From NCBI RefSeq assembly GCF_009931435.1, contig NZ_CP043414.1: a stretch of DNA of 64,000 nt. One strand, given 5' to 3'. This document shows, in pieces, positions 45,312 through 63,110 of this stretch. Position 1 is the first letter of the stretch; every line of letters starts with the position of its first letter. This DNA comes from Escherichia coli. Lineage in GTDB: Bacteria; Pseudomonadota; Gammaproteobacteria; Enterobacterales; Enterobacteriaceae. Under the pieces are notes generated by a model, which was not told the origin of the DNA, ran no database searches, and saw nothing but the letters and a program-made list of their open reading frames with translations. The position numbers were made by a program, and so were the translations under genes.

Positions 45312-46763
45312 TTAATGTGAGGTCTGCCGGCGCAGGAAGCGTCCCGCACGGCCTGTAATATGTTTATCGCGACCATAGCTCATAACGCCGTTCACCATCA
45401 CCGCCTCAATGCCATCTGCCGGGCGTTTGGGATCAGAAAAGCTGGCAACATCACGAATGGTTTGTGGATCGAACAACACCAGGTCCGCAAAATAACCGAC
45501 TTTCACCAGTCCACGCTGGGGCAGGCGAAAACGGCTGGCAGAAAGCCCGGTCATTTTGTGGATAGCCGTGGTCAGTGGGAATAAGCCTTCATCACGGCAA
45601 TAGTGGCCCAGCACACGAGGGAAGGCGCCCCATAAACGTGGATGCGGCATGGGATCATTGGGCAGGCCGTCAGAGCCAATCATACTGACCGGATAACTCA
45701 ACACTCGGCGGACGTCGCGCTCGTCCATGTTGTAATAGATAGCCCCGGCAGGCATTAGCAGCTTCGCGGCCTCCAGCATACTCATCTGCCAGTCGATGGC
45801 GATTTGCGCCAGTGTTTTCCCGGCCTGCTGCGGATGTGTTTGTGACCAGGTGATCATAATATCGAATTCGTCGGTGACTTGTTTGAGATCCAGCGTTGAA
45901 GAGCTGGCTGAGTAAGGGTAGACATCGCAGCCAATTTCCTGGTGTTGACGCATTTGGTCAAAAAAGGCCAACGTTTCTTTTGTCCGCCCCCAGTTTTTCG
46001 CCCCGGCGCATTTATGATGGGAAACCACGACAGGCACTTTGCCATGACGCCCAATACGAAACGCCTCATCCAGGGCATCGAGAATCGGTTCAAATTCAGA
46101 ACGCAGGTGGGTGGTATAAACGCCCTTCTCACCGGCTAATTCTTCCGCCAGCGCCATGACTTCTTCGGTAGTCGCCTGAAATGCTGTGGCATAGGCCAGC
46201 CCGGAACTTAACCCCAGCGCCCCCTGACTCAACGCCAGACGTAAGTCGGCGCGCATGGCGGCAATTTCATCCGCCGTCGCCGGGCGAAACAGGTCGTCCA
46301 TATGGTTATTACGCAGCGCCGTATGACCAATCAGCGTGCCAACGTTCAGTGACGGCCTGGCTGCTTCCACTGCCTGGGCATAGCTTTCAACGGTAGGATA
46401 AATAAAGTGCTCCGCTTCCCCCAACAGATTCATCGGGTCAGGAACTTCACCTTTCATTTTCGCCGACGCCGCACTGATCCCGCAGTTACCGACAATCACC
46501 GTAGTGATCCCCTGACTGATCTTTGGCAGATATTCCGGGATGCGAATAACGTTGATATCGTCATGGGTATGAACGTCGATAAACCCTGGTGCCAGCACCC
46601 GCCCTTCCCCGTCAATGACCTGCTGCGCCGTAGCGTTAAGCGCAGGGGCAATATCGACAATCCGATCACCTGTTATTGCCACGTCACCGCGAAATTCAGG
46701 GCCGCCGCTACCGTCGATAACGGTCACATTTTTGATTAACCAGTCAACCTGCATGTTCGTCAC
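45312..46763 (-). CDS. N-acyl-D-amino-acid deacylase (D-aminoacylase), amidohydrolase superfamily
   Basis: 483 aa; N-terminus VIDGSGGPEFRGDVAITGDRIVDIAP and metal-binding GFIDVHTHDD motif. Confidence 0.7.
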   Translation of the reverse strand: MTNMQVDWLIKNVTVIDGSGGPEFRGDVAITGDRIVDIAPALNATAQQVIDGEGRVLAPGFIDVHTHDDINVIRIPEYLPKISQGITTVIVGNCGISAASAKMKGEVPDPMNLLGEAEHFIYPTVESYAQAVEAARPSLNVGTLIGHTALRNNHMDDLFRPATADEIAAMRADLRLALSQGALGLSSGLAYATAFQATTEEVMALAEELAGEKGVYTTHLRSEFEPILDALDEAFRIGRHGKVPVVVSHHKCAGAKNWGRTKETLAFFDQMRQHQEIGCDVYPYSASSSTLDLKQVTDEFDIMITWSQTHPQQAGKTLAQIAIDWQMSMLEAAKLLMPAGAIYYNMDERDVRRVLSYPVSMIGSDGLPNDPMPHPRLWGAFPRVLGHYCRDEGLFPLTTAIHKMTGLSASRFRLPQRGLVKVGYFADLVLFDPQTIRDVASFSDPKRPADGIEAVMVNGVMSYGRDKHITGRAGRFLRRQTSH

Positions 46764-46954
46764 TCCATTTCTGCAATGGTGACAAGTTAACCATTTACAA
46801 GGACGAAAAACAGTGGAAAACTACGCAAAACCCAGATGATTTTCTGATACTTTTATTCATAAACTATAAGATAAATAAACTAAATATTTATATTTCATTT
46901 AGTTACAAATGATACTCACATCCGATACGGTGAAAAACTTAAAAGGTAAATGTT

Positions 46955-48175
46955 ATGAAATACCACTCAGAACCTCTGGTTCCCCATAAATCGGCCCTGA
47001 TGCAAATGCCCGCAAATCTCCTTGCCGAAGATGTCTGTTTACCTGCCGCGATCATTAAAAAGCAGGCCCTGGAGAACAACATTACGTGGATGCAGCGTTA
47101 TGCTGACGCGCGCGGCGTTTCGCTGGCACCGCACGGTAAAACCACCATGACGCCGTGGATTTTTCAGGCGCAGCAGGCAGCTGGTGCCTGGGCAATAGGT
47201 GTCGGTAGCGCATGGCAGGCTGGTGCGGCAATGGCGAGCGGTATTCAGCGAGTGCTGATGGTTAACCAGCTGGTCGGCAAGGCGAATATGCAGTTGATTG
47301 CCCAGTTGCAACGACATTACCCGACGGTCGATTTTATCTGCTGTATCGACAGCATTGAGAACGCCCGCGCTTTGTCTGCCTTTTTTGCCAGTCAGCAACA
47401 GACACTGAACGTGATGATTGAGTTGGGTGTCCCCGGCGGACGCTGTGGCTGCCGCTCAACGGATGCCGCACTGGCACTGGCTAAACAGGCGGCCCAATTA
47501 CCAGGGCTACGTCTGCGCGGGCTTGAGTTATATGAAGGTGTTTTACACGGTGACGATCCACAACCGCAGGTAGAAGCACTGCTGCGGGATGCCGCACAAC
47601 TGGCCTGTGATATGGCAAGTCTGGTTGATGGCGAATTTATTCTCACCGGAGCAGGCACGGTCTGGTATGACGTGGTGTGCAATATCTGGCTGGCGGCAGA
47701 AAAGCCTGATAACTGCCGCATTGTTATTCGCCCTGGCTGCTACATCACTCACGACACCGGGATCTACGACGCGGCACAACAACAGTTGCTTGCCCGCGAT
47801 CCTGTGGCCTGCGATCTGGCAGGCGATCTCACATCTGCGCTGGAACTGGTCGCCATGGTGCAATCGGTGCCGGAAGCTGATCGTGCGGTGGTAAATTTTG
47901 GTAAGCGTGATTGCGCCTTCGACGCCGGACTGCCGCAACCAGTCGCCCACTACCGCAACGGCAAATCACTGGCATTTGATCCACAGGCGATTCGCAGTAC
48001 AGGCATTATGGATCAGCACTGCATGTTGCAACTGTCAGCTAATAGCGACGTGCAAGTGGGGGATATTCTGGTGTTTGGCACATCGCATCCGTGCCTGACC
48101 TTCGACAAATGGAAAGCGTTGTTATTGACTGATGACGACTACAACGTACTGGCGGAATTAGACACTCTCTTCTAA
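46955..48175 (+). CDS. PLP-dependent alanine-racemase-fold enzyme (D-serine deaminase-like / D-threonine aldolase family)
   Basis: 406 aa; candidate PLP-lysine motif LAPHGKT near the N-terminus; divergent from the deacylase operon. Confidence 0.6.
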   Translation: MKYHSEPLVPHKSALMQMPANLLAEDVCLPAAIIKKQALENNITWMQRYADARGVSLAPHGKTTMTPWIFQAQQAAGAWAIGVGSAWQAGAAMASGIQRVLMVNQLVGKANMQLIAQLQRHYPTVDFICCIDSIENARALSAFFASQQQTLNVMIELGVPGGRCGCRSTDAALALAKQAAQLPGLRLRGLELYEGVLHGDDPQPQVEALLRDAAQLACDMASLVDGEFILTGAGTVWYDVVCNIWLAAEKPDNCRIVIRPGCYITHDTGIYDAAQQQLLARDPVACDLAGDLTSALELVAMVQSVPEADRAVVNFGKRDCAFDAGLPQPVAHYRNGKSLAFDPQAIRSTGIMDQHCMLQLSANSDVQVGDILVFGTSHPCLTFDKWKALLLTDDDYNVLAELDTLF

Positions 48176-48180
48176 GAATA

Positions 48181-48214
48181 CCCCTTCGGTTAATTATCGA
48201 AGGGGCATTTTTAT
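48181..48214 (+). terminator. Rho-independent terminator after the racemase-fold gene
   Basis: CCCCTTCG-GTTAATTAT-CGAAGGGG hairpin followed by CATTTTTATT. Confidence 0.65.
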
Positions 48215-48230
48215 TGTGATCTCAATCACA
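48215..48230. promoter_or_regulatory. CRP binding site upstream of btsT
   Basis: TGTGATCTCAATCACA, a perfect TGTGA-N6-TCACA. Confidence 0.55.
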
Positions 48231-48258
48231 TATCCACCCGACGAATAATTCTTGCCCA

Positions 48259-48286
48259 ACCGCTCACCGCCATTCCTGACCGCTTA
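48259..48286 (+). promoter_or_regulatory. Candidate BtsR (LytTR) direct-repeat binding site upstream of btsT
   Basis: ACCGCTCA, 12 nt, ACCGCTTA direct repeat, matching the ACC(G/A)CT(C/T)A motif I recall for the btsT (yjiY) promoter. Confidence 0.45.
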
Positions 48287-48442
48287 CGTCCCAAATATAA
48301 CCACTCAGTTATTTACCTTACTTTACGCGCGCGTAACTCTGGCAACATCACTGCAGGATAGCGGTCAATTTACCTCCTCAAACGCAACGCAAACCTAGAA
48401 CGGCTTCGGCCAACTATTAATCAATACATGCCAGGTTTTACT

Positions 48443-50593
48443 ATGGATACTAAAAAGATATTCAAGCACATACCCTGGGTGATTCTTGGAATCATCGGTG
48501 CATTCTGCCTCGCGGTAGTTGCATTACGTCGGGGGGAGCACGTCAGCGCCCTGTGGATCGTGGTCGCCTCTGTGTCGGTGTATCTGGTGGCTTATCGCTA
48601 CTACAGTCTGTACATCGCCCAGAAGGTGATGAAACTCGACCCCACGCGCGCGACGCCTGCGGTTATTAACAATGACGGTCTGAACTATGTTCCGACCAAC
48701 CGTTACGTGTTGTTTGGTCACCACTTCGCCGCTATCGCCGGTGCGGGTCCGCTGGTTGGTCCGGTTCTCGCCGCGCAGATGGGTTACCTGCCTGGCACAC
48801 TGTGGCTGCTGGCGGGGGTAGTGCTGGCCGGTGCGGTACAGGACTTTATGGTGCTGTTTATCTCTTCTCGCCGTAACGGCGCATCTCTCGGTGAGATGAT
48901 CAAAGAAGAGATGGGGCCAGTACCGGGGACTATCGCGCTGTTTGGCTGTTTCTTAATCATGATCATCATCCTCGCCGTTCTGGCGCTGATTGTGGTTAAA
49001 GCCCTGGCCGAAAGTCCGTGGGGGGTCTTCACCGTTTGCTCAACCGTACCGATTGCGCTGTTCATGGGTATCTACATGCGCTTTATCCGTCCGGGGCGTG
49101 TAGGTGAAGTCTCTGTTATTGGTATCGTGCTGCTGGTTGCCTCTATCTACTTCGGTGGCGTGATTGCTCACGATCCGTACTGGGGTCCGGCACTGACCTT
49201 TAAAGACACCACAATTACCTTCGCACTGATTGGCTATGCGTTTGTTTCCGCACTGCTGCCGGTGTGGCTGATCCTCGCACCGCGCGACTATCTGGCAACC
49301 TTCCTGAAAATCGGCGTTATCGTCGGCCTGGCGCTGGGTATCGTGGTGCTGAACCCGGAACTGAAAATGCCTGCGATGACCCAGTACATTGACGGTACTG
49401 GCCCGTTGTGGAAAGGCGCTCTGTTCCCGTTCCTGTTCATCACCATCGCCTGTGGTGCGGTATCTGGCTTCCACGCGCTGATCTCTTCCGGTACAACGCC
49501 GAAATTGCTGGCTAACGAAACCGACGCGCGTTTCATTGGCTACGGCGCAATGCTGATGGAGTCCTTCGTGGCGATTATGGCGCTGGTTGCTGCGTCCATC
49601 ATCGAACCGGGTCTTTACTTCGCGATGAATACCCCGCCTGCGGGCCTTGGCATCACCATGCCTAACCTGCATGAAATGGGTGGCGAGAACGCGCCGATCA
49701 TCATGGCGCAGCTGAAAGACGTTACCGCACACGCGGCAGCGACTGTCAGCTCCTGGGGCTTCGTGATTTCGCCAGAGCAGATCCTGCAAACCGCGAAAGA
49801 CATTGGTGAGCCTTCTGTCCTGAACCGTGCAGGTGGTGCGCCGACGCTGGCGGTAGGTATCGCTCACGTGTTCCACAAAGTGCTGCCGATGGCTGACATG
49901 GGCTTCTGGTATCACTTCGGTATTCTGTTCGAAGCCCTGTTCATCCTGACCGCGCTGGATGCGGGTACCCGTTCTGGCCGCTTTATGCTGCAAGACCTGC
50001 TGGGTAACTTCATCCCGTTCCTGAAAAAAACCGACTCTCTGGTTGCCGGCATCATCGGTACTGCGGGCTGTGTGGGTCTGTGGGGCTACCTGCTGTATCA
50101 GGGCGTGGTCGATCCGCTGGGCGGCGTTAAGAGCCTGTGGCCGCTGTTCGGTATCTCCAACCAGATGCTGGCAGCCGTAGCGCTGGTACTGGGCACCGTT
50201 GTGCTGATTAAGATGAAGCGCACCCAATACATCTGGGTGACTGTTGTTCCGGCTGTATGGCTGCTTATCTGCACCACCTGGGCGCTGGGCCTGAAACTGT
50301 TCAGCACCAACCCGCAGATGGAAGGCTTCTTCTACATGGCAAGCCAGTACAAAGAGAAGATTGCTAACGGTACTGACCTGACGGCACAGCAGATTGCCAA
50401 CATGAACCACATCGTTGTGAACAACTACACCAACGCGGGTCTGAGTATTCTGTTCCTGATTGTGGTGTACAGCATCATCTTCTACGGTTTCAAAACCTGG
50501 CTGAAGGTGCGTAACAGCGACAAACGTACTGACAAAGAAACTCCGTACGTTCCAATCCCGGAAGGCGGCGTGAAGATCTCTTCGCACCACTAA
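48443..50593 (+). CDS. btsT: Pyruvate/H+ symporter BtsT (YjiY), CstA family
   Basis: Start placed at MDTKKIFKHIPWVILGIIGAF... (716 aa). Confidence 0.9.
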   Translation: MDTKKIFKHIPWVILGIIGAFCLAVVALRRGEHVSALWIVVASVSVYLVAYRYYSLYIAQKVMKLDPTRATPAVINNDGLNYVPTNRYVLFGHHFAAIAGAGPLVGPVLAAQMGYLPGTLWLLAGVVLAGAVQDFMVLFISSRRNGASLGEMIKEEMGPVPGTIALFGCFLIMIIILAVLALIVVKALAESPWGVFTVCSTVPIALFMGIYMRFIRPGRVGEVSVIGIVLLVASIYFGGVIAHDPYWGPALTFKDTTITFALIGYAFVSALLPVWLILAPRDYLATFLKIGVIVGLALGIVVLNPELKMPAMTQYIDGTGPLWKGALFPFLFITIACGAVSGFHALISSGTTPKLLANETDARFIGYGAMLMESFVAIMALVAASIIEPGLYFAMNTPPAGLGITMPNLHEMGGENAPIIMAQLKDVTAHAAATVSSWGFVISPEQILQTAKDIGEPSVLNRAGGAPTLAVGIAHVFHKVLPMADMGFWYHFGILFEALFILTALDAGTRSGRFMLQDLLGNFIPFLKKTDSLVAGIIGTAGCVGLWGYLLYQGVVDPLGGVKSLWPLFGISNQMLAAVALVLGTVVLIKMKRTQYIWVTVVPAVWLLICTTWALGLKLFSTNPQMEGFFYMASQYKEKIANGTDLTAQQIANMNHIVVNNYTNAGLSILFLIVVYSIIFYGFKTWLKVRNSDKRTDKETPYVPIPEGGVKISSHH

Positions 50594-50642
50594 CCGTGTT
50601 TAGCCCCGCTTCGGCGGGGCTTTGTTCTTATCAGAGTGAACT

Positions 50643-50846
50643 ATGTTTGGTAACTTAGGACAGGCAAAAAAATATCTCGGCCAGGCGGCGAAGATGTTGA
50701 TTGGCATTCCAGACTACGACAACTACGTCGAGCATATGAAGACCAACCATCCCGACAAGCCGTACATGAGCTATGAAGAATTCTTCCGCGAACGCCAGAA
50801 CGCGCGCTACGGCGGCGATGGTAAAGGCGGTATGCGCTGTTGTTAA
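50643..50846 (+). CDS. yjiX: YjiX (DUF466 family small protein)
   Basis: 67 aa [67 protein letters not shown]. Confidence 0.8.
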
Positions 50847-50856
50847 TGGAGAGAGC

Positions 50857-51813
50857 ATGAACCCGATTGCAGTTACCCTACTCACCGGTTTTTTAGGCGC
50901 AGGCAAAACCACCCTGCTGCGCCATATTCTTAATGAACAGCACGGCTACAAGATTGCCGTGATTGAAAACGAATTCGGCGAAGTCTCCGTTGATGATCAA
51001 CTGATTGGCGACCGCGCCACGCAGATCAAAACGCTGACCAACGGCTGCATCTGTTGTTCGCGCTCCAACGAGCTGGAGGACGCGCTACTCGACCTGCTGG
51101 ATAATCTCGACAAGGGCAATATTCAGTTCGATCGTCTGGTCATTGAATGCACCGGCATGGCCGATCCCGGCCCGATTATTCAGACCTTTTTCTCCCATGA
51201 GATTTTATGCCAGCGTTACCTGCTGGACGGCGTGATTGCGCTGGTGGATGCGGTACATGCCGATGAGCAGATGAACCAGTTCACCATCGCCCAGTCACAG
51301 GTTGGCTACGCCGACCGCATTCTGCTGACCAAAACCGACGTCGCAGGCGAAGCAGAAAAACTGCGTGAACGCCTGGCACGCATCAACGCCCGCGCACCGG
51401 TCTACACCGTCACCCACGGCGACATCGATCTGGGCCTGCTGTTCAACACCAACGGTTTTATGCTGGAAGAAAACGTCGTCAGCACCAAACCGCGTTTCCA
51501 CTTTATCGCGGATAAACAAAACGATATTTCGTCGATTGTGGTAGAACTGGATTACCCGGTAGATATCAGCGAAGTTTCCCGCGTGATGGAAAACCTGCTG
51601 CTGGAGTCGGCGGATAAACTGCTGCGTTACAAAGGGATGCTATGGATTGACGGCGAACCAAATCGCCTGCTGTTCCAGGGCGTCCAGCGCCTCTACAGCG
51701 CCGACTGGGACCGCCCGTGGGGCGATGAAAAACCGCATAGCACGATGGTGTTTATCGGGATTCAGCTGCCGGAGGAAGAGATTCGGGCTGCGTTTGCGGG
51801 GTTGAGGAAGTAA
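50857..51813 (+). CDS. yjiA: COG0523/CobW-family metal-binding GTPase YjiA
   Basis: Start placed at MNPIAVTLLTGFLGAGKTTLLRHIL... (318 aa); GCICCS metal-binding motif. Confidence 0.9.
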   Translation: MNPIAVTLLTGFLGAGKTTLLRHILNEQHGYKIAVIENEFGEVSVDDQLIGDRATQIKTLTNGCICCSRSNELEDALLDLLDNLDKGNIQFDRLVIECTGMADPGPIIQTFFSHEILCQRYLLDGVIALVDAVHADEQMNQFTIAQSQVGYADRILLTKTDVAGEAEKLRERLARINARAPVYTVTHGDIDLGLLFNTNGFMLEENVVSTKPRFHFIADKQNDISSIVVELDYPVDISEVSRVMENLLLESADKLLRYKGMLWIDGEPNRLLFQGVQRLYSADWDRPWGDEKPHSTMVFIGIQLPEEEIRAAFAGLRK

Positions 51814-51878: not shown

Positions 51879-52628
51879 TTATGAAACATCACGAAATACA
51901 CAGGTAAGTTCTTTAGGACTTGCTTTCCATATATGGTCAAAGCCACTCGACAGCATGACTTCTATTTTTCCTTCCGGACTTTCAATTAGTAAATAGCGAT
52001 CATGGCAGTTTGTATATTTGGGATTTGTAGTGATTTGCACACTCCATTCAGGATGGATACAATGAACAAAATTACTATTTATTTTACTTCCGTTTTGGAC
52101 TGCAGCGACACCTACTGCGATTTCTGAAAATTCAATAACAAGCTCTTTTCTAGGTAGTACGGAATGAAATAAGCTGCATGTATTCTCCCAATTCTGTGCA
52201 AAGTAATTATCGCATATAATTACTTTTTTTGCATTGCAACATAGCATTTCCAGATACTTTTTTAAATATATTCTATTATCTGTAGGGCTTAATGTAACGG
52301 TAACTTGATTATTAACCATACCTTTTTTATAATGTACAAAGGGAAGTGATAAATTATCATTCTCAGTAAGGATTATTTTCAACAACGATTTAGATGCTAA
52401 AGTAACAAGATCATCATCACTTTCAGGCTGACTTGCTAACATAGATAAATATTGTCGATATTCTAACTCCGGCATCTTCAATCCTAAATTTCTTGCCTCA
52501 ATCCATTGCCTTTTGTTAGTTAAATAAGGTAGTACTAGTTTTTTATGTAATCTCTTCACCTTATTCTTATCATCCATATTTTCATATGCAACTAATAAAG
52601 ATGTATCAAGAACCATTTGATAAGACAT
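51879..52628 (-). CDS. Hypothetical protein, no recognisable domain; third gene of the accessory operon (gene C)
   Basis: 249-aa ORF; ATG 4 nt after the ATPase stop with a GAGGT Shine-Dalgarno; AT-rich coding sequence. Confidence 0.6.
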   Translation of the reverse strand: MSYQMVLDTSLLVAYENMDDKNKVKRLHKKLVLPYLTNKRQWIEARNLGLKMPELEYRQYLSMLASQPESDDDLVTLASKSLLKIILTENDNLSLPFVHYKKGMVNNQVTVTLSPTDNRIYLKKYLEMLCCNAKKVIICDNYFAQNWENTCSLFHSVLPRKELVIEFSEIAVGVAAVQNGSKINSNFVHCIHPEWSVQITTNPKYTNCHDRYLLIESPEGKIEVMLSSGFDHIWKASPKELTCVFRDVS

Positions 52629-52632
52629 TTCT

Positions 52633-53682
52633 TTACCTCATCTTCATCAAATCATCTAAGGTTGCATCAAAAAAACCTAAAGGGAATCCCGTAACATTCT
52701 CTTGCAGATCGGTAAATTTCCCACCTTCATTAACTCTCATCGAGATAAAATCTTTATCCACATCAGGTTTATAATGTACAGAAATATCCTCAGAAGTTAT
52801 AACATCTTCATAAACCAAATACGCAAGTTTATTGATTAAATGTTCACAATGCGTTTCTACAATAATCTGGATACCCTTACTTGCTACAAATGCTAAAAAA
52901 ATTGCCAAATGAGACTGCGCTTTCGGATGCAATTGAATTTCGGGATTTTCTAGCAAAATAAGATCGCCTTTTTTTGCCATCAAACAAATAATCAAAACCT
53001 TTGCAATATAACTCATCCCAGCCCCAAGATTAAGAGGAGAAACATTTCCTTCAAGCTCTTTTAAGGTAAAAGCGACCTTAATCTGGTCACCAACTTTTTC
53101 AGTAACTAATTCAGACGTCGTTCCTGTAATCAGTTTCAACCAATAAGATAATTGATATGCAAGTGTTGTAGATTCGTGAACTTTCACCAGATATTCAGGT
53201 ACTGGCAAATGTTTCATTTTATCAAATGTTGAAAACAAGAATTCTCCTGCAACACCTACTCGACGTTCTGCGGTGGGCACAAATTCTTGTGCCCCCAAGC
53301 GGTTGGCATTCAGATAGAGCAACTCAGGTTCACTACCAGGCACTCTTGGCTCGTATTGATATCCCAGACGACTATCAATTTCGATATTTTCTGAGTTGAG
53401 CGTTAACGAATGAGAATTTTTTTCTGTATCCTGGACTGTTATAACAATAGATTTTGCGTTATTTTTTTTATTTCTAATAACAGGAAAATCAGCTAGAAAT
53501 CGGATAACTTCTTCCATACTATACTGATTAACAGAAGCGCTATTTTTAATTAGTAACATCAATGCCTGAATAACGCTGGATTTACCAGAAGAGTTAGTTC
53601 CAGTTAAAATGGTCAGTGGTGATAACACCAGACTTGTTGAGCCTAAACTTTTAAATCCTTGAATGTTAATATTTGTAAGCAT
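52633..53682 (-). CDS. ABC-type/AAA_21-like ATPase, second gene of the accessory operon (gene B)
   Basis: 349 aa; N-terminal MLTNINIQGFKSLGS... with Walker A GTNSSGKSS; C-terminal Walker B and H-loop (DLILLENPEIQLHP...IIVETHCEHL); start overlaps the upstream gene by 17 nt. Confidence 0.75.
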   Translation of the reverse strand: MLTNINIQGFKSLGSTSLVLSPLTILTGTNSSGKSSVIQALMLLIKNSASVNQYSMEEVIRFLADFPVIRNKKNNAKSIVITVQDTEKNSHSLTLNSENIEIDSRLGYQYEPRVPGSEPELLYLNANRLGAQEFVPTAERRVGVAGEFLFSTFDKMKHLPVPEYLVKVHESTTLAYQLSYWLKLITGTTSELVTEKVGDQIKVAFTLKELEGNVSPLNLGAGMSYIAKVLIICLMAKKGDLILLENPEIQLHPKAQSHLAIFLAFVASKGIQIIVETHCEHLINKLAYLVYEDVITSEDISVHYKPDVDKDFISMRVNEGGKFTDLQENVTGFPLGFFDATLDDLMKMR

Positions 53683-54796
53683 TTTTAATCCTTTCCATTA
53701 TTTCCTTCGCAAAATCAAAACGCATATTTACATATTGTGTTGTATCAATTGCACCAGAAAAAATACCAATCTCATCAAAATTATACTTGTATTGTTCAAT
53801 AAGCTGTTTTAATTCAATATTTTTTGATAAAAATTCAAAACTTATCTGACTGAATACCATAACTAACACTTCGAATAATCCCATATTCACTGGTCGCCTT
53901 TTAGCACCTGATTTTGTTGAAAATCTAAATGCTTCTGAACCCAACGCTTTATAGACATTAGTCATACCAGTTATACAAGCATCTTCAACTTCTTCCAGTA
54001 ACTCATCATCAGCTTTTGTATTAATGAATTTCATCGCAGATGCTAAAAAAGCATCAATATCAGACCTAAATTCAACACCTGGCATTTGATTTGTTACAAG
54101 CAAATAAAATCCTACGAACCGCAAAACCAGATATCTGTCTCGCATACGCTCAGATTTTACGCCATTACCTGTTGCAAGCCTGAAAGACTCGTGTTCAGCG
54201 AGATCCTTAATTAACTTTGTGGCCTTGCCTTGATAAAGAGCATGCCGCATTTCCTGTTTATTTAGATTAATACCACTTCGATTTACACGCTCAAAAATAT
54301 TAAATTTCACATATTCAGGTGTTGGGGGTTGAATCACATAAGAATGTAACTGGCAATCTTCAAGCTTTGCTTGTAATAATGGAGGAATATCAGAAAATTT
54401 TTTTCCTCTCAAGTCAGGCAACATAGATAAATCAGTTAAAGAAAATTCATTGTTAACATAGCGTTTCAATGCAGATATTCGTTGTTTGCCATCAATGATT
54501 TGCCTGACACCATTTTCATCCTCAAAAAGATAAATTAATGGAATAGGAATCCCCATTAAAATAGATTCAATTAATTCTGACTGGTGTTTTCTATCCCAGA
54601 CAAGTTTACGCTGAAAATCTGGAGCAAGAACCAGTTGCCCACGAGCTTCGCGACGGAGTAATTCGAAAACACTGGATTGCTCTTTTGCAATTCGAACCTC
54701 AGTATCTGTCCCCATTTGATGCGGATGAGATGTTAACTCAAGCTCTTCTTGATCTTCGAGTTCAATGCTGTCGTTTTCTACATCCGCATTACTCAT
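53666..54796 (-). CDS. DUF262 (ParB/sulfiredoxin-like NTPase, GmrS-type) domain protein, first gene of the accessory operon (gene A)
   Basis: 376 aa; acidic N-terminal tail then DUF262 motifs PDFQRKLVWDRKHQSELIESILMGIPIPLIYLF...IIDGKQRISAL and FNIFERVNRSGINLNKQEM; no DUF1524/HNH motif found. Confidence 0.75.
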   Translation of the reverse strand: MSNADVENDSIELEDQEELELTSHPHQMGTDTEVRIAKEQSSVFELLRREARGQLVLAPDFQRKLVWDRKHQSELIESILMGIPIPLIYLFEDENGVRQIIDGKQRISALKRYVNNEFSLTDLSMLPDLRGKKFSDIPPLLQAKLEDCQLHSYVIQPPTPEYVKFNIFERVNRSGINLNKQEMRHALYQGKATKLIKDLAEHESFRLATGNGVKSERMRDRYLVLRFVGFYLLVTNQMPGVEFRSDIDAFLASAMKFINTKADDELLEEVEDACITGMTNVYKALGSEAFRFSTKSGAKRRPVNMGLFEVLVMVFSQISFEFLSKNIELKQLIEQYKYNFDEIGIFSGAIDTTQYVNMRFDFAKEIMERIKNAYKY

Positions 54797-55036: not shown

Positions 55037-57469
55037 ATGGCGGAACTGAACCTAAGTAACCTGACGGAAGCAGACATCATTACCAAATGCGTTATGCCAG
55101 CCATTCTCAATGCAGGCTGGGACAACACAACGCAAATCAGACAGGAGGTCAAACTCCGGGACGGTAAAGTCATCGTACGTGGTAAAGTTGCGGCACGCAG
55201 AACGGTAAAATCTGCTGACATCGTGCTGTATCACAAACCAGGCATTCCCTTAGCCGTGATTGAAGCAAAAGCCAACAAACATGAAATTGGCAAAGGGATG
55301 CAACAGGGCATTGAATATGCGCGCCTGCTGGACGTTCCTTTTGTTTTTGCCACCAACGGGGATGGCTTTATCTTCCGCGATGCCACCGCAGCCGAAGGTG
55401 AATGCCTTGAAAAGCAAATAACGCTGGATGACTTCCCCTCCCCCGCTGAACTCTGGCAAAAATTCTGCCTCTGGAAAGGATACACACAAGCTCAGCTTCC
55501 GGTGATTACTCAGGACTATTACGACGATGGCAGCGGTAAATCGCCACGTTATTACCAGCTTCAGGCAATCAACAAAACCATTGAAGCCGTCTCCAACGGG
55601 CAAAACCGCGTTCTGTTGGTCATGGCGACCGGAACAGGGAAAACCTATACCGCATTCCAGATCATCTGGCGCCTGTGGAAATCAAAAAATAAAAAACGCA
55701 TTCTGTTCCTTGCCGATCGCAACATTCTGGTCGACCAAACCAAAAATAATGATTTCCAGCCATTTGGTACGGCAATGACCAAAGTCAGCGGACGCACCAT
55801 TGATCCCGCTTATGAAATTCACCTCGCGCTCTATCAGGCTATAACTGGCCCGGAGGAAGACCAAAAAGCGTTTAAACAAGTCGCACCAGATTTCTTCGAT
55901 CTGATAGTCATCGACGAATGCCATCGCGGCAGCGCATCCGAAGACAGCGCCTGGCGAGAGATCCTTGATTATTTCAGTTCCGCCACCCAAATTGGCTTAA
56001 CCGCCACGCCAAAAGAGACGCATGAAGTCTCCAGCACGGATTACTTCGGCGATCCGGTTTACGTCTACTCGCTAAAAGAAGGGATCGAAGACGGCTTCCT
56101 CGCCCCTTATAAAGTTGTCCGTGTTGATATTGATGTTGATCTGCAAGGCTGGCGCCCAACCAAAGGGCAAACTGACTTAAACGGCGAAGTGATCGACGAT
56201 CGTATCTATAACCAGAAAGATTTCGATCGCACGATGGTAATCGACGAACGCACAGAACTGGTTGCCAGAACCATTACCGACTACCTCAAGCGCACCAATC
56301 CGATGGATAAAACCATCGTCTTCTGTAACGACATCGATCATGCAGAACGTATGCGCCGCGCCCTGGTTAATCTCAACTCGGAGCAGGTGAAAAAGAACGA
56401 CAAATACGTCATGAAAATCACCGGCGATGATGAAATTGGCAAAGCTCAGTTGGATAACTTCATCAACCCGAAAAAACCGTACCCGGTTATCGCGACCACT
56501 TCAGAGCTGATGACCACCGGTGTGGATGCTAAAACCTGCAAACTGGTAGTACTGGACCAGAACATCCAGTCGATGACCAAATTCAAGCAGATTATCGGTC
56601 GTGGTACACGCATCGACGAACGTTACGGCAAACTCTGGTTTACCATCCTCGACTTTAAAAAAGCCACCGAACTGTTTGCCGATGAGCGTTTCGATGGCAT
56701 TCCCGAAAAAGTCATGGATACCACACCAGAGGATATCACCGATCCAGAATCTGATTTTGAAGAGAAACTCGAAGAAATCAGCGAACATGACGACGAACAG
56801 GTAACGGGCGTTGATGAACCGCCTGCGCCACCATACCAGGTTACCGATACCGATGATGTCGGCCCACTTCCGGAAGAAGACGAGAAGAAAATCCGCAAGT
56901 TTCACGTCAACGGTGTCGCGGTGGGCGTTATTGCGCAGCGTGTTCAGTATTACGATGCCGACGGTAAACTGGTTACCGAATCTTTTAAAGATTACACCCG
57001 CAAAACACTGCTCAAAGAATATGCCTCGCTGGATGACTTTACCCGCAAGTGGCAGGACGCCGATCGCAAAGAAGCGATCATTCACGAGCTGGAGCAACAG
57101 GGGATCATCTGGGAAGTACTGGCAGAAGAAGTCGGTAAAGATCTCGACCCGTTCGACATGCTTTGCCACGTAGTGTATGGTCAGCCGCCGTTAACCCGCA
57201 AAGAGCGCGCCGAGAACGTGCGCAAGCGGAACTACTTCACAAAATACTCTGAAGCAGCGCAAGCCGTGCTCGATAATCTGCTGGATAAATACGCCGATGC
57301 GGGCGTACAGGAGATCGAAAGTATTCAGGTGCTGAAACTTAAACCATTCGACAGCATGGGCACTTTACCGGAGATTATTAAAACCGGATTTGGCGACCGT
57401 AACGGGTATAATCAGGCGCTCAGCGAGCTGGAAAACGAAATCTACCAATTACCGCCCCGCTCTGCTTAA
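55037..57469 (+). CDS. hsdR: Type I restriction enzyme R subunit HsdR (short, Type IB-like form)
   Basis: 810 aa; N-terminal PD-(D/E)xK nuclease region and SF2 helicase motifs [26 protein letters not shown]. Confidence 0.9.
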
Positions 57470-57483
57470 CAACTCTCTTTTGC

Positions 57484-57522
57484 GCCTTCTGCAACCATCA
57501 TGTTGCAGAAGGCCTTGTTTTT
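57484..57522 (+). terminator. Rho-independent terminator between hsdR and hsdM
   Basis: Perfect 12-bp stem GCCTTCTGCAAC / GTTGCAGAAGGC with a 6-nt loop, followed by CTTGTTTTTC. Confidence 0.55.
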
Positions 57523-57535
57523 CATGGAATACAAC

Positions 57536-59005
57536 ATGTCTATCAGCTCAGTAATCAAATCATTACAAGATATTATGCGCAAAGATGCCGGTGTGGATGG
57601 CGATGCGCAGCGTCTCGGTCAGCTCTCCTGGCTGCTGTTTTTGAAAATCTTCGATGCCCAGGAAGAGGCGCTGGAACTGGAGCAGGATAACTATCAATAT
57701 CCGATCCCACAGCGTTATTTGTGGCGCAGTTGGGCCGCCAACGCGCAGGGCATTACCGGTGATTCCCTGCTGGAATTCGTTAATGATGATCTGTTCCCGG
57801 CGTTGAAAAACCTCACTGCGCCTATCGATAAAAACCCACGCGGCTACGTGGTGAAGCAGGCGTTCAGCGATGCCTATAACTATATGAAAAACGGTACGCT
57901 ACTGCGTCAGGTGATCAACAAGCTGAACGAAATTGACTTTACCAGCGCCAGCGAACGCCATCTGTTTGGTGATATTTACGAACAGATCCTTAAAGATCTG
58001 CAATCTGCGGGCAATGCTGGCGAATTCTATACTCCACGCGCCGTCACTCGCTTTATGGTGGATCGCGTTGATCCGAAACTCGGCGAATCCATTATGGACC
58101 CGGCCTGCGGTACGGGCGGTTTTCTTGCCTGCGCATTTGATCATGTAAAGAACAAATACGTGAAGAGCGTCGCCGATCATCAGACTCTGCAACAACAGAT
58201 CCACGGTGTCGAGAAAAAACAGCTTCCGCACCTGCTGGCGACCACCAATATGCTGCTGCACGGCATTGAAGTACCGGTACAAATTCGTCACGACAACACC
58301 CTGAATAAACCGCTTTCCTCCTGGGATGAGCAACTGGATGTGATTGTTACCAACCCGCCATTTGGTGGCACGGAAGAAGACGGTATTGAGAAGAACTTTC
58401 CGGCAGAGATGCAAACCCGCGAAACGGCGGATCTGTTCCTGCAACTGATTGTGGAAGTACTGGCGAAAAACGGTCGCGCGGCGGTGGTATTGCCGGATGG
58501 CACACTATTTGGCGAAGGCGTTAAAACCAAAATCAAAAAACTGCTTACCGAAGAGTGCAACCTGCATACCATCGTGCGTTTACCGAATGGGGTGTTTAAC
58601 CCCTATACCGGCATTAAAACCAACCTGTTGTTCTTTACCAAAGGTCAGCCAACCAAAGAGATTTGGTTCTATGAGCATCCGTATCCGGCGGGCGTGAAAA
58701 ATTACAGTAAAACCAAGCCGATGAAGTTTGAAGAGTTTCAGGCGGAGATCGACTGGTGGGGGAACGAGGCCGATGGTTTTGCCAGCCGCGTCGAGAATGA
58801 GCAGGCGTGGAAAGTCAGCATTGATGACGTGATTGCGCGTAACTTCAATCTGGATATTAAAAACCCACATCAGGCGGAAACCGTTAGCCATGATCCGGAC
58901 GAGCTGTTAGCGCAGTATGCAAAGCAGCAGGCGGAGATCCAGACGCTGCGTAATCAACTGCGCGATATTCTTGGCGCTGCGCTGTCTGGCAAGGAGGTTA
59001 ACTGA
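57536..59005 (+). CDS. hsdM: Type I restriction-modification N6-adenine DNA methyltransferase HsdM
   Basis: SAM motif DPACGTGGFL and catalytic NPPFGG; start placed at MSISSVIKSLQDI... after the hairpin (the track ORF starts at 57500, inside the hairpin). Confidence 0.9.
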   Translation: MSISSVIKSLQDIMRKDAGVDGDAQRLGQLSWLLFLKIFDAQEEALELEQDNYQYPIPQRYLWRSWAANAQGITGDSLLEFVNDDLFPALKNLTAPIDKNPRGYVVKQAFSDAYNYMKNGTLLRQVINKLNEIDFTSASERHLFGDIYEQILKDLQSAGNAGEFYTPRAVTRFMVDRVDPKLGESIMDPACGTGGFLACAFDHVKNKYVKSVADHQTLQQQIHGVEKKQLPHLLATTNMLLHGIEVPVQIRHDNTLNKPLSSWDEQLDVIVTNPPFGGTEEDGIEKNFPAEMQTRETADLFLQLIVEVLAKNGRAAVVLPDGTLFGEGVKTKIKKLLTEECNLHTIVRLPNGVFNPYTGIKTNLLFFTKGQPTKEIWFYEHPYPAGVKNYSKTKPMKFEEFQAEIDWWGNEADGFASRVENEQAWKVSIDDVIARNFNLDIKNPHQAETVSHDPDELLAQYAKQQAEIQTLRNQLRDILGAALSGKEVN

Positions 59006-60753
59006 TGAGTGTGGAAAAGCTGATCGTTGATCATATGGAAACCTGGACCTCGGCGTTGCAAACCCGTTCCACCGCCGGGCGCGGCAGTTCCGGAAAAATT
59101 GATTTATATGGCATTAAGAAATTACGTGAGCTGATTCTGGAACTGGCTGTGCGCGGTAAACTGGTGCCGCAGGATCCGAATGATGAACCGGCGTCGGAGC
59201 TGCTGAAGCGTAATGAAGAACGGAAAAAAGAATTAGCGCGCAATAATGGTATGAAAACCACAGCAAGCACTAATATCCATGGAAATGAATATTATATCGA
59301 TACCCCCGAAAAGTGGTCATGGATAAGACTTGGTAATTTAGCTAAATTCATCGATTACCGAGGGAAAACACCACATAAAAAAGAAAATGGTATAAGGCTT
59401 ATAACAGCAAAAAATATCAGAAAGGGCTGTATTGATCTCAATCCAGAAGAATTCATATCTGAAGAAGATTACATATCATGGATGACAAGAGGCTTTCCTA
59501 AATGTGGTGATATTTTATTCACAACTGAAGCACCACTGGGGAATGCAGCGATTATTGATTTAGACGGAAAGTTCGCTCTTGCTCAACGTTCTATCTGTTT
59601 TCAATGGCATACTCCAGAGATAAGCCCTTTTATGCTTATTCAAATCCTGGCGATCCCCTTCCAGTCACAACTAAGTGACAAATCTACAGGCATGACCGCA
59701 ACAGGAATAAAAGCGTCTAAGTTAAAAGAGATCCCTGTTATTTTACCACCTTACCAAGAACAAATACGTATTGTATCCAAAGTACAGGAGTTCATGTCCC
59801 TATGTGACCAACTGGAACAGCAATCCCTGACCACTCTGGACGCACATCAGCAACTGGTTGAAACCCTGTTGGGAACGCTTACAGACAGCCAAAACGCCGA
59901 GGAACTGGCTGAAAACTGGGCGCGTATTAGCGAGCATTTCGACACCCTATTTACCACCGAAGCCAGCGTGGATGCGTTAAAACAGACCATTCTGCAACTG
60001 GCCGTAATGGGCAAACTTGTGCCGCATGATCCGAATGACGAACCAGCCTCTGAACTGCTCAAACGAATTGCGCAGGAAAAAGCTCAACTGGTGAAAGAAG
60101 GAAAAATAAAAAAACAAAAACCGTTGCCGCCGATTAGCGATGAGGAAAAACCTTTTGAACTGCCGGAAGGGTGGGAATGGATTAGACTAGGAAATATTGG
60201 TGAAGTTAAAGGGGGCGGAACCCCAAGTAAAAACAATCCTGATTTTTGGAAAGGTAATATTCCATGGGTTTCACCAAAGGATATGAAGGTTAATTACATC
60301 TCCAAAAGTCAACTAAATATTTCAAAAGAGGCTGTATTGGAGAGTTCAGTACATCTAATTCCTGAAAATAGTCTTATTTTTGTTGTCCGAGGCATGATTT
60401 TAGCCCATACATTCCCCGTAGCAATAACAAAAAAAGAAGTCACTATTAATCAAGATATGAAAGCCATATCAACTAATCAATTAAATACTGATTTTTTAAT
60501 TTACTTACTTAAAGCAAACGAGACTCGAGTAATATGCTTAGTTGACCGCTCCTCTCATGGCACATGTAAACTTGTTTCAGATAAACTTTTCAATTTGGTT
60601 TTACCGTTGCCTCCATTAGAAGAACAATTTCGTATTACAGAACGAATAAATATGCTATTAGCTTATTGTGATAGATTGAAAAATTATATAAATCTAAAAA
60701 AACAAACCCAACTGCACCTTGCAGATGCACTCACTGACGCGGCGATAAACTAA
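59005..60753 (+). CDS. hsdS: Type I restriction-modification specificity subunit HsdS
   Basis: 582 aa; ATG overlaps the hsdM stop (TGATG); two target-recognition domains, each preceded by a conserved repeat (LAVRGKLVPQDPNDEPASELLKR / LAVMGKLVPHDPNDEPASELLKR). Confidence 0.9.
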   Translation: MSVEKLIVDHMETWTSALQTRSTAGRGSSGKIDLYGIKKLRELILELAVRGKLVPQDPNDEPASELLKRNEERKKELARNNGMKTTASTNIHGNEYYIDTPEKWSWIRLGNLAKFIDYRGKTPHKKENGIRLITAKNIRKGCIDLNPEEFISEEDYISWMTRGFPKCGDILFTTEAPLGNAAIIDLDGKFALAQRSICFQWHTPEISPFMLIQILAIPFQSQLSDKSTGMTATGIKASKLKEIPVILPPYQEQIRIVSKVQEFMSLCDQLEQQSLTTLDAHQQLVETLLGTLTDSQNAEELAENWARISEHFDTLFTTEASVDALKQTILQLAVMGKLVPHDPNDEPASELLKRIAQEKAQLVKEGKIKKQKPLPPISDEEKPFELPEGWEWIRLGNIGEVKGGGTPSKNNPDFWKGNIPWVSPKDMKVNYISKSQLNISKEAVLESSVHLIPENSLIFVVRGMILAHTFPVAITKKEVTINQDMKAISTNQLNTDFLIYLLKANETRVICLVDRSSHGTCKLVSDKLFNLVLPLPPLEEQFRITERINMLLAYCDRLKNYINLKKQTQLHLADALTDAAIN

Positions 60754-60775
60754 TTTTCTCGCCCTCATAAAACCA

Positions 60776-60801
60776 ATAAAGCGGCTAAATAGCCGCTTTA
60801 T
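60776..60801. terminator. Hairpin downstream of hsdS
   Basis: ATAAAGCGGCT-AAAT-AGCCGCTTTAT palindrome 23 nt after the hsdS stop; no strong U-tract. Confidence 0.35.
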
Positions 60802-60880
60802 TCACATCACCAAAAATTATATTTTACGCTAATTTTCATCTTATTTTCATTAATTTTTAGCTGGACTTTCCCCATATTTA

Positions 60881-60896: not shown

Positions 60897-60914
60897 GTAT
60901 TTAGCGCGGTGCGA

Positions 60915-61000
60915 ATGTGCGCCAACACACCCGCACCGCTCATCACAATCCCTATTTCACGAGAATAGTAATCATGACTGACACGCATTCTATTGCACAA
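60915..61000 (-). ncRNA. symR: Expected position of the SymR antisense sRNA (boundaries not determinable from sequence)
   Basis: Placed only by analogy: in K-12 SymR is encoded antisense to the symE 5' UTR and start codon; no independent sequence evidence. Confidence 0.25.
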
Positions 61001-61315
61001 CCGTTCGAAGCAGAAGTCTCCCCGGCAAATAACCGTCAATTAACCGTGAGTTATGCGAGCCGCTACCCGGATTACAGCCGTATTCCCGCCATCACTCTGA
61101 AAGGTCAGTGGCTGGAAACCGCCGGTTTTACCACCGGCACGGCGGTAGATGTCAAAGTGATGGAAGGCTGTATTGTCCTCACCGCCCAACCACCCGCCGC
61201 CGAGGAGAGCGAACTGATGCAGTCACTGCGCCAGGTGTGCAAACTGTCAGCGCGTAAACAGAAGCAGGTGCAGGAGTTTATTGGGGTGATTGCCGGTAAA
61301 CAGAAAGTCGCCTGA
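60974..61315 (+). CDS. symE: SOS-induced toxin-like protein SymE (AbrB/SpoVT fold)
   Basis: 113 aa [48 protein letters not shown]...; track ORF starts at an upstream Met (60917). Confidence 0.85.
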
Positions 61316-61361: not shown

Positions 61362-63110
61362 TTATACCAACGCGCTCTCCATCTGTTTTTCAAATGCCTG
61401 ACGGATTAATCCCATAATGTAAGGAAGTTGTGCGAGGTCGCTGAAACCAATTTCTACATCGCCATTGCCCCAGCGCCCAACATTTGTCACATCTTTGGCA
61501 ATACCTTTCGGATCGACCAGTTCATGAAACTGCATATTAAGCGACAATCGCAGTCGGCTTTTTTGCGGCACAACATCAACAAAATTCGTTTCCGCTTTAA
61601 ACGCAATATAGAGCTTCAATACTTCCTGCGTGATCCCTGCGTCCAGGCGCAAAACTTCATCGCTAAGATGATCGAATAACACCCGGCTATGCGAACCATC
61701 AGCAAGAAAAGGATAATCACTCAGGCTGTAACTGGTTTTGTTTTCCGGCTGCCCCCGATAAACAGCTAAAACCTCTTCAGGAAGAGAAGGCGCTTGCCAG
61801 ACCTGAACCGCGAGATCGGCCAGACGATCGGCTCGGGCGTGAATGGCAGCTTCATCCCATTTTTCGCACTGTCCAAGACCGATATTCAAATAAAGCGGGC
61901 TATGCTTAAAGCCGTCTTCAATATCGCGTTTTTCCGCGAAAGGTCTGTCACTGTAGCGGGAGTTATAGCGCGTTAAAGTGAGATTCCCCAACGTATGCAA
62001 CAATTCTTTATGAATACGCTGCCAGTCGCTTCCCAGCTCTTCGCGCCATTTAGCCGACAAATTTTCGTTCTGCGGCATAATGTGCTCAATCGTAAACTCT
62101 TCCACGCGCTCTCTGCGTTTATTGTTTTCCAGTCGTCGTAACCAGTAACTGCGACTGCGGAAGTTATAGAGATCGCGAACTTTTAATTCCCGTTTAAATT
62201 CATCATCGTTGGGGAAACGACGATATGAAGGTAGATTCAGAAAATGTACCTGAATACTTTCCAGATAATTTTCTTTATTAATAACTTTATAAAAAGTGGC
62301 AAACGTCTTGTTAAGAGAATTTGTTGGAATCGCACATACTGCACGGCGGAAAACATAAGATTCAATTAAACGAATTATGCTCAGGAAATCTTCACGAGAC
62401 AAAACGCCATTTTTATAGTCATGATAAAGCGCCAGTAAGAAAGGATACGCCACATCGACTTTTAACTCGCGCAAATCCTGAAAAGCCGTAGCAAGCGATT
62501 TGTCACTTTCTTTTCCCAATGCCATTGCACAGTAATACTCCGCGTAGATGTGAATATCTTCAACCAGCCGATCTACGCCTTTTTCAGCAACACTCTGGCT
62601 ACGGGCATGGAGTTTAAAAGCCTCATAGACTTCATCTGTCCGAGGGATCTCCCCCGTTTTTACCGTCAGATAATGACGCATAAAACTGTCAAAATATTCG
62701 CTGTAACCTTGCTGACCAAAGGCGACTTCCATGGGTCGCCAGTGATCTTCATACAACCGGGTTTGATGCTCTGGTTCGAGACCCATCAGAATAAAATTGC
62801 GCACCAGATCGGCCTGACTTAACGCCTTACCGGTGGAGTTCATACTTTCAAAAATCAGTTGCGGATTATCCTGACCACGATTAAGCGCCACATCGACAAT
62901 TAATAACTTTGCTAACCCACGACATAAGGGGATCAAGTCATCACCGAGTTTGGCAATTTGTTCATCAAAGAAAGTAAAGTTTTCCATTATTCGATGGGAA
63001 TAGTTTTCTGGCATTGGTCTTTGTTTTATTAACGCCAGCAAACTGTCTTTATCAGTCTCGGTAAGCAGTAATTTAAATCCTTTCTCGCCGGACTCATAAG
63101 GATTGAGCAA
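61362..63110 (-). CDS. GmrSD-family (DUF262 C-terminal part + DUF1524 His-Me finger) protein lacking the N-terminal DGQQR core; possibly the yjiT-equivalent locus
   Basis: 582-aa ORF with a TTG start right after an in-frame stop; DUF262 distal motif IFESMNSTGKALSQADLVRNFILMG; DUF1524 motif EHIMPQNENLSAKW...LHTLGNLTLTRYNSRYSD; only 64 bp separate it from yjiS. Confidence 0.7.
   Translation of the reverse strand: MLNPYESGEKGFKLLLTETDKDSLLALIKQRPMPENYSHRIMENFTFFDEQIAKLGDDLIPLCRGLAKLLIVDVALNRGQDNPQLIFESMNSTGKALSQADLVRNFILMGLEPEHQTRLYEDHWRPMEVAFGQQGYSEYFDSFMRHYLTVKTGEIPRTDEVYEAFKLHARSQSVAEKGVDRLVEDIHIYAEYYCAMALGKESDKSLATAFQDLRELKVDVAYPFLLALYHDYKNGVLSREDFLSIIRLIESYVFRRAVCAIPTNSLNKTFATFYKVINKENYLESIQVHFLNLPSYRRFPNDDEFKRELKVRDLYNFRSRSYWLRRLENNKRRERVEEFTIEHIMPQNENLSAKWREELGSDWQRIHKELLHTLGNLTLTRYNSRYSDRPFAEKRDIEDGFKHSPLYLNIGLGQCEKWDEAAIHARADRLADLAVQVWQAPSLPEEVLAVYRGQPENKTSYSLSDYPFLADGSHSRVLFDHLSDEVLRLDAGITQEVLKLYIAFKAETNFVDVVPQKSRLRLSLNMQFHELVDPKGIAKDVTNVGRWGNGDVEIGFSDLAQLPYIMGLIRQAFEKQMESALV

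Follow-up and report, generated by a model that had tools for sequence, protein, structure and literature searches.

With high confidence, the 64,000-nt stretch of Escherichia coli DNA analysed here (the window; contig NZ_CP043414.1) harbors an intact chromosomal type IB (EcoAI-family) hsdR-hsdM-hsdS restriction-modification (RM) system in the immigration control region, at the position held by EcoKI in K-12. The genes follow one another in this order, all three open reading frames (ORFs) are full length (Table 1), and the locus is flanked by yjiA and symE/symR, as in the K-12 arrangement. It is an ordinary type IB RM system of an already known kind, distinctive only in its reshuffled specificity subunit, and the predicted function of the allele is type IB RM activity.

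Searches against 5426 complete E. coli genomes revealed the locus in about 940–976 of them, namely in 976 with hsdS as query and in 940 with the hsdR-hsdM junction; a wider query including symE and the flanks resulted in 2269 genomes, a number that does not represent a count of the hsd locus. Neighboring defence genes at this site are often pseudogenes; a GmrSD homolog is shortened in the window, and the annotations of CFT073, N96, and GPT24-02 list it as a pseudogene.

Table 1. Positions of genes, HsdS regions, and hairpins of the hsd locus in the window
Feature	Position	Strand	Basis or details
hsdR, type IB restriction/translocase subunit, 810 aa	55037..57469	+	ORF, Pfam, NCBIfam, identity to CFT073
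Terminator-like hairpin	57484..57523	+	Perfect 12-bp stem (57484-57495 / 57502-57513), 6-nt loop, then CTTGTTTTTC
hsdM, N6-adenine methyltransferase subunit, 489 aa	57536..59005	+	Pfam HsdM_N and N6_Mtase; corrected start
hsdS, specificity subunit, 582 aa	59005..60753	+	ORF; Pfam Methylase_S in two stretches; PADLOC
Direct repeat, copy 1	59134..59215	+	End of the N-terminal conserved region, aa 44-70
TRD1, variable N-terminal target recognition domain	59212..59802	+	HsdS comparisons; GC 0.378
Central conserved region	59803..60192	+	GC about 0.50; contains repeat copy 2
Direct repeat, copy 2	59989..60070	+	aa 329-355
TRD2, variable C-terminal target recognition domain	60193..60699	+	HsdS comparisons; GC 0.322
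Palindromic terminator-like hairpin	60775..60802	.	22 nt past the hsdS stop, between hsdS and symR/symE

Gene content and family assignment

A sequence-only reading of this region had noted a short HsdR of 810 aa and suggested an EcoAI-type (IB) allele instead of an EcoKI-type one, and both points were confirmed. HsdR carried the Pfam domains HSDR_N, ResIII, Helicase_C, and EcoEI_R_C (PF08463, 127.7 bits) and scored 1193.8 bits with NCBIfam model NF046051 (EcoAI/FtnUII equivalog, cutoff 550), whereas it reached 217 bits with PRK11448, the model for long HsdR proteins of the EcoKI type (cutoff 729). Compared to EcoCFTI of strain CFT073, HsdR was 99.5% identical (4 residues differ) and HsdM 99.8% (1 residue differs), and the PADLOC model Specificity_I (PDLC03179) matched HsdS over its full length. 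Altogether, the HsdR family (about 810 aa, EcoEI_R_C), the kinship of HsdM, and the layout of HsdS with its direct repeat point to type IB, while the long HsdR of about 1170 aa that hits the EcoKI-type model in type IA was not found; as judged from the sequence, the type IB assignment is thus supported on every testable criterion. Type I families were originally defined by subunit complementation and antibody cross-reaction, and from the near-identity of HsdR and HsdM to EcoCFTI, complementation with subunits of other type IB members would be very likely.

Though chromosomal position and gene order are those of EcoKI, a type IA system has practically no probability, given an HsdR of 810 aa instead of the 1170 aa of EcoKI, the PRK11448 score far below its cutoff, and the CFT073 system, near-identical in HsdR, which shares less than 40% identity with type IA in all three genes (bioRxiv 10.1101/2021.01.08.425850). 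We also consider it improbable that the locus has decayed to a remnant without function. The frequent pseudogenes among the nearby defence genes, together with the shortened GmrSD homolog, might be taken as a hint of decay, but none of the three ORFs is truncated, HsdR and HsdM are only 4 and 1 residues away from the functional CFT073 proteins, and each recognition domain matches full-length homologs.

The start of hsdM was placed at 57536, where the N-terminal residues MSISS are kept across genera and GGAA is found just before the start codon; RefSeq homologs are annotated with 489 aa and a gap of 66 nt between hsdR and hsdM. The longest ORF, starting at 57500 (501 aa), was rejected, since its ATG is located inside a hairpin loop, other genera do not conserve it, and the annotated length of the RefSeq homologs does not fit. 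Downstream, the ATG of hsdS overlaps the TGA of hsdM by 1 nt (TGATG) and is preceded by AAGGAGG, a strong ribosome-binding site; this overlap would couple the translation of both genes.

Mosaic structure and predicted specificity of HsdS

In type I systems, HsdS carries two target recognition domains (TRDs) that are spaced by conserved helical regions and recognize a bipartite target in the DNA, one adenine of each half-site is methylated by the M2S1 complex, and together with two HsdR subunits the enzyme performs ATP-driven translocation of DNA from unmodified targets and cuts at a distance (PMC3874165, PMC12707154). HsdS proteins of type IB open with a long conserved region and display the domain order D2-S1-D1-S2 (PMC3874165, PMC2481252), and their published hallmark is a direct repeat whose copies begin at about aa 50 and aa 325 (PMC2481252). 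In the window, HsdS is composed of a conserved region (aa 1–69), TRD1, a second conserved region (aa 267–396), TRD2, and a short conserved end (aa 566–582). Both repeat copies comprise 82 nt with 78% nucleotide identity and 23 of 27 identical residues, so that their earlier description as near-identical is appropriate for the protein but overstated for the DNA. They had further been reported to flank the recognition domains; the repeats are real, but each copy precedes one domain instead of flanking both.

The remark that the second domain is AT-rich was borne out by the GC content of TRD2, and TRD1 is low as well (Table 1), compared to 0.50 in hsdR, in hsdM, and in the conserved regions of hsdS. 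TRD1 was identical to that of the HsdS of GPT24-02, unrelated to those of N96 and CFT073, and present in just two of the 5426 complete genomes, GPT24-02 and 06-00048. For TRD2, N96 alone among these genomes revealed a match, with 99% nucleotide identity; the domain differs from the TRD2 of CFT073/EcoAI, and it is the CFT073 version that is found in GPT24-02. Along hsdS, identity switched sharply at about 59200, 59800, 60170, and 60700, with the breakpoints located in the conserved regions. A swappable module, which had been proposed for the second domain, is shown directly by this mosaic, in which GPT24-02 and 06-00048 have TRD1 in common with the window and N96 has TRD2. The pairing of both domains was detected in none of the 5426 complete RefSeq genomes and is present in other assemblies, the identical HsdS protein already being contained in NCBI and encoded in at least 24 assemblies, GCA_002965045.1 among them.

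Based on these comparisons, HsdS is a recombinant protein, and neither of its two AT-rich recognition domains corresponds to that of EcoAI, so that its target should not be GAG N7 GTCA. The pairing probably specifies a target outside the characterised prototypes, and this would be a bipartite m6A motif if the type IB rule of two methylated adenines 9 bp apart holds (PMC12707154 Table 1). Solved structures were insufficient to derive the specificity: the best lead, and the one characterised relative of either domain, was the C-terminal TRD of EcoR124I/II, which TRD2 matched with about 39% identity over 171 residues (E = 2e-32), an identity that does not suffice to assign the half-site, and TRD1 revealed a weak match to EcoKI (E = 2e-7). 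The allele has little significance beyond annotation, being one more textbook allelic restriction locus that diversifies by swaps of recognition domains, here with a clear mosaic of three strains; knowing it helps to predict the methylation motif of the strain and its transformation barrier.

Hairpin upstream of hsdM and transcription of hsdMS

The perfect 12-bp-stem hairpin described before between hsdR and hsdM was recovered, with the letters GCCTTCTGCAAC-CATCAT-GTTGCAGAAGGC (57484–57513) followed by the tail CTTGTTTTTC. Seven of the 12 stem pairs are G-C, and the T-run is interrupted by C and G. The 66-nt spacer folded with −22.1 kcal/mol (z = −4.71), a value that none of 200 shuffles matched. 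In seven Enterobacterales sequences the hairpin is kept, with 97.6% of cells paired versus 33–58% in slid controls and with compensatory changes on both sides in 5 of the 12 stem pairs; in Yersinia, Morganella, and Serratia the T-run is separated from the stem by 3–4 nt. Relatives from Vibrio and Paraburkholderia do not carry the hairpin. A dispersed (REP-like) repeat was discarded, as the window contains only one copy of the element. A G+C-rich stem-loop with a T-run, maintained as a structure in evolution, is what characterizes an intrinsic terminator, and such a hairpin would terminate at least some of the transcripts coming from hsdR.

The sequence-only reading had taken this element as a terminator implying separate hsdR and hsdMS transcription units. 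While the conserved terminator-like hairpin stands, the distance from the T-run to the hsdM ATG is only 12 nt, that from the stem to the ATG is just 22–32 nt in all seven sequences, and neither a consensus scan nor a weight-matrix scan across the seven genera detected a promoter between hairpin and hsdM. Likewise, no promoter-like site conserved in position was found in this interval of the seven sequences. With 12 nt after the T-run and no sigma-70-like promoter in it, the hairpin alone does not establish a separate hsdMS unit. The top promoter-like site in all seven sequences is located inside hsdR (57153–57181, TCGACA-17-TATGGT); we rejected it as independent evidence for a promoter, since it falls on conserved codons for Asp and Tyr-Gly and protein constraint alone explains its conservation. 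A search of the literature yielded no study that maps transcripts of type IB loci.

According to the canonical two-promoter layout, the hairpin would be an efficient terminator that cleanly ends the hsdR transcript, with hsdMS being transcribed independently from its own promoter. Conservation of hairpin and T-run with covariation argues for this layout, as do reviews that give EcoKI two promoters and an apparent terminator past hsdR (PMC12707154), but the short distance to the ATG, the lack of a position-conserved promoter-like site in the seven sequences, and a spacer of 66 nt versus 200 nt in EcoKI speak against it, so that we regard it as plausible at somewhat less than an even chance. Since a promoter would not fit past the hairpin, any hsdMS promoter should lie upstream of it, with its transcripts crossing the hairpin. 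As a tentative reading, the hairpin may therefore act as a leaky attenuator or RNA-stability element, either in an hsdRMS co-transcript or on a transcript from a promoter inside hsdR, tuning the ratio of HsdR to HsdM/S instead of insulating the genes. Apart from the missing room downstream, the interrupted T-run and the stem spacing in Yersinia, Morganella, and Serratia, which is suboptimal for strong intrinsic termination, are consistent with attenuation, and the best promoter-like site of all seven sequences is found within hsdR; against it, codon constraint can explain that site, and it would be strange for a restriction system to keep M/S low compared to R. Extended to type IB systems of Enterobacterales in general, hsdMS would lack its own promoter past hsdR, and every hsdM transcript would run through the hairpin, which would serve as a tuned, leaky attenuator or an element of RNA stability and set the HsdR to HsdM/S ratio; this generalization is rather unlikely. 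If true, such hairpin-crossing hsdM transcripts would set these systems apart from EcoKI and its textbook layout with two promoters. The only non-textbook point of the locus is a conserved hairpin so near to hsdM that no promoter fits between them.

Comparison with known systems

EcoCFTI of CFT073 is a functional type IB system with EcoAI specificity that restricts plasmids containing GAG N7 GTCA (bioRxiv 10.1101/2021.01.08.425850). Apart from near-identical HsdR and HsdM, it shares with the window identical conserved regions of HsdS, the 66-nt spacer with its hairpin, the chromosomal site, and the neighbor symE. O157:H7 likewise has a junction of hsdR and hsdM identical to that of the window. 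In contrast, both HsdS recognition domains are unrelated, reducing identity of the whole HsdS to 53%, and thus both half-sites should differ. The classical type IB systems EcoAI, EcoEI, and EcoAO83I (the latter two set beside the window by their published description) belong to the same family and have the same HsdS layout, with repeats at about aa 50 and aa 325 compared to aa 44 and aa 329 here, but carry another pair of recognition domains.

Similarities to EcoKI (type IA, K-12) comprise the yjiA-symE site, the gene order, and the 1-nt overlap of hsdM and hsdS, for which coupling is described in PMC3510504. EcoKI differs in its HsdR of 1170 aa (gene of 3513 nt), its 200-nt spacer between hsdR and hsdM, a circularly permuted domain order of HsdS, and a different sequence family. 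EcoR124I/II (type IC), whose C-terminal domain reads RTCG, resembles TRD2 at about 39% identity, yet represents another family. The two halves of the specificity subunit are best matched in GPT24-02 (OZ282453), which has TRD1 in common with the window and combines it with a TRD2 of the EcoAI/CFT073 type, and in N96 (CM169999), which shares TRD2 and harbors a different partner domain.

A type IB system at the classical hsd site

Three ORFs on the same strand fill 55037-60753, and PADLOC called their products full length as REase_I, MTase_I, and Specificity_I. HsdR scored 1193.8 bits against the NCBIfam equivalog "EcoAI/FtnUII family type I restriction enzyme subunit R" (cutoff 550) but reached just 217 bits with PRK11448, the long-HsdR model (cutoff 729). 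Comparison with the proteins of E. coli CFT073, which carries EcoCFTI, revealed 806/810 identical residues in HsdR, 488/489 in HsdM, and 53% identity in HsdS. The CFT073 system, described as type IB and less than 40% identical to type IA, acts by restriction on plasmids with GAG N7 GTCA (bioRxiv 10.1101/2021.01.08.425850). Membership in the EcoKI family (type IA) is thus refuted by the near-identity of HsdR and HsdM to these type IB proteins and by the PRK11448 score, while the EcoAI-type (IB) assignment proposed by the sequence-only reading is supported by the equivalog score and the same identities.

Flanked by yjiA and symE/symR, the locus occupies exactly the place of EcoKI in K-12, which makes it an allele of the classical hsd site within the immigration control region, of which type IB has already been named in reviews as a common occupant (PMC12707154). 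Among 5426 complete E. coli genomes, O157:H7 included, matches to hsdS were detected in 976 and to the hsdR-hsdM junction in 940; the whole window hsdS occurred in none of these RefSeq genomes. The allele has been recorded before: NCBI already has an identical 582-aa HsdS under a MULTISPECIES Escherichia entry, indexed in 38 blocks of the collection and present in 24/24 contigs examined, and several draft assemblies shared the same hsd locus and neighbours. Altogether, this is an ordinary, already-catalogued type IB restriction-modification system with a recombinant specificity subunit.

Features of the hsd locus and its neighbours (positions in the window)
Feature	Position (strand)	Size or GC	Domains or matches
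Three-gene island	51879-54796 (-)	GC 0.347	NsnA, NsnB, NsnC
hsdR	55037-57469	810 aa	HSDR_N, ResIII, helicase C, EcoEI_R_C
Hairpin	57484-57513		
hsdM	second ORF		HsdM_N, N6_Mtase
hsdS	third ORF		Methylase_S in two stretches
Direct repeat	59134-59215 and 59989-60070	82 nt	
N-terminal conserved segment of hsdS		GC 0.527	
TRD1 (N-terminal target recognition domain)	59212-59802	GC 0.378	
Central conserved segment of hsdS		GC 0.496	
TRD2 (C-terminal target recognition domain)	60193-60699	GC 0.322	
C-terminal conserved segment of hsdS		GC 0.481	
symE/symR	60903-61315		toxin-antitoxin pair
symR	60903-60979 (-)		Rfam, 88.9 bits
GmrSD-family gene	61362-63110 (-)	582 aa	GmrSD_N, GmrSD_C, DUF5655

The position of mrr in K-12, immediately upstream of hsdR, is taken here by a low-GC island with PADLOC matches (E-values 2e-110 to 2e-71) to NsnA (376 aa, GmrSD_N/DUF262), NsnB (349 aa, AAA_15/AAA_21 ATPase), and NsnC (249 aa, no Pfam), the gene set of the Menshen anti-phage system; the island goes with the window hsdS allele in the draft assemblies L003-L008 too. 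Behind hsdS, a SymE start at GTG 60917 given by the ORF finder was disfavoured, 60974 (113 aa) being most likely. The K-12 mcrBC position is occupied by a GmrSD-family gene with a TTG start, which lacks roughly the 100 N-terminal positions of its PADLOC profile and may be N-terminally truncated; homologues have 697 aa in L006 and L008 and are split or annotated as pseudogenes in CFT073 and in E. coli N96 and GPT24-02. Loci from Serratia, Yersinia, Morganella, and 'P. cerasi' harbored a fourth gene (366-367 aa, no Pfam; e.g., L012:6736-7839) 10 nt past hsdS, similar to PADLOC candidate PDC-S11 (E = 1e-166) and with a weak NucS-like nuclease stretch; the loci of E. coli, Salmonella, and Klebsiella lack this gene and have symE after hsdS instead. 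Further upstream, for a block between btsT and yjiA (44000-51800), annotations in relatives name an N-acyl-D-amino-acid deacylase, an amino acid deaminase, and a sodium:solute symporter, and an 8-kb query spanning it was at least 80% covered in just 158/5426 complete E. coli genomes. Rfam matches at 19554-19731 and 27531-27849 comprised a tandem pair of naRNA4 (REP-type) elements and a tandem array of three 84-nt tRNA genes.

A mosaic specificity subunit

The two near-identical repeats reported to flank the recognition domains of HsdS do exist (aa 44-70 and 329-355, 23/27 residues identical), though their DNA identity is 78% and each copy precedes one recognition domain instead of the two copies flanking both. 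This arrangement reflects the domain order D2-S1-D1-S2 of type IB S subunits (PMC3874165). TRD2 is markedly AT-rich compared to the conserved segments, as had been noticed, and the idea of a swappable module was borne out as well. TRD1 recurs in GPT24-02 and the E. coli strain 06-00048 (98-100% identity), the former combining it with a CFT073/EcoAI-type TRD2, while TRD2 was found at 99% only in N96 among the complete E. coli genomes (n = 5426). Sliding identity switched abruptly at about 59200, 59800, 60170, and 60700, the borders of the conserved regions. Shared domains and sharp switches directly show that domains have been exchanged through recombination in conserved regions, a process long established for type I enzymes (PMC3874165). 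Both domains differ from those of EcoAI, which argues for a recognition target other than GAG N7 GTCA. TRD2 aligns with the C-terminal, RTCG-reading domain of EcoR124I/II over 171 residues (c. 39% identity, E = 2e-32), a lead to one half-site rather than a prediction.

The hsdR-hsdM hairpin and transcription of hsdMS

The strong hairpin noted between hsdR and hsdM was confirmed as GCCTTCTGCAAC-CATCAT-GTTGCAGAAGGC, followed by the T-run CTTGTTTTTC; it occurs once in the 64-kb window, and the folding energy of the 66-nt spacer is -22.1 kcal/mol (z = -4.71 vs. shuffles). The longest ORF would start hsdM at 57500, an ATG inside the hairpin loop, and was rejected in favour of the conserved start at 57536 (MSISS, preceded by GGAA), in agreement with the 489-aa RefSeq annotation. 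In seven junctions (window, Salmonella, Klebsiella aerogenes, Yersinia, Morganella, Serratia, and a record labelled Pseudomonas cerasi), a hairpin with T-run was present at the equivalent place with differing stem sequences; 97.6% of the alignment cells pair (slid controls 33-58%), with both-side changes in 5/12 pairs. The hairpin was absent from more distant plasmid-borne type IB loci, namely those of Vibrio aerogenes, where the spacer contains TATAAT, and Paraburkholderia, where the gap is just 18 nt. The hairpin is thus a real structure under selection within Enterobacterales.

Separate hsdR and hsdMS units, which the sequence-only reading had deduced from this hairpin, are the standard view of type I systems (PMC12707154). 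The hairpin alone, though conserved, does not establish them: in the window the T-run ends just 12 nt before the hsdM ATG (22-32 nt from the stem across the seven sequences), and neither a consensus nor a weight-matrix scan of the seven found a positionally conserved promoter between hairpin and hsdM, so that transcripts encoding HsdM would have to cross the hairpin. Such transcripts might start at the hsdR promoter and read through, or start at a promoter within hsdR. The top promoter-like site does fall inside hsdR in 7/7 sequences (57153-57181, TCGACA-17-TATGGT) but was set aside as evidence, because conserved codons for Asp and Tyr-Gly overlap it and account for its conservation without any promoter function. 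The T-run lies 3-4 nt from the stem in several genera and is interrupted in the window, both of which would be compatible with incomplete termination.

With AAGGAGG upstream, the last base of hsdM doubles as the first of hsdS (TGATG), a coupling of the kind known for EcoKI (PMC3510504). The hsdR-hsdM junction of EcoKI, in contrast, measures 200 nt compared to 66 nt here, and the conserved hairpin abutting hsdM, which bears on the origin of hsdMS transcripts, is the sole mildly non-textbook point of this locus.
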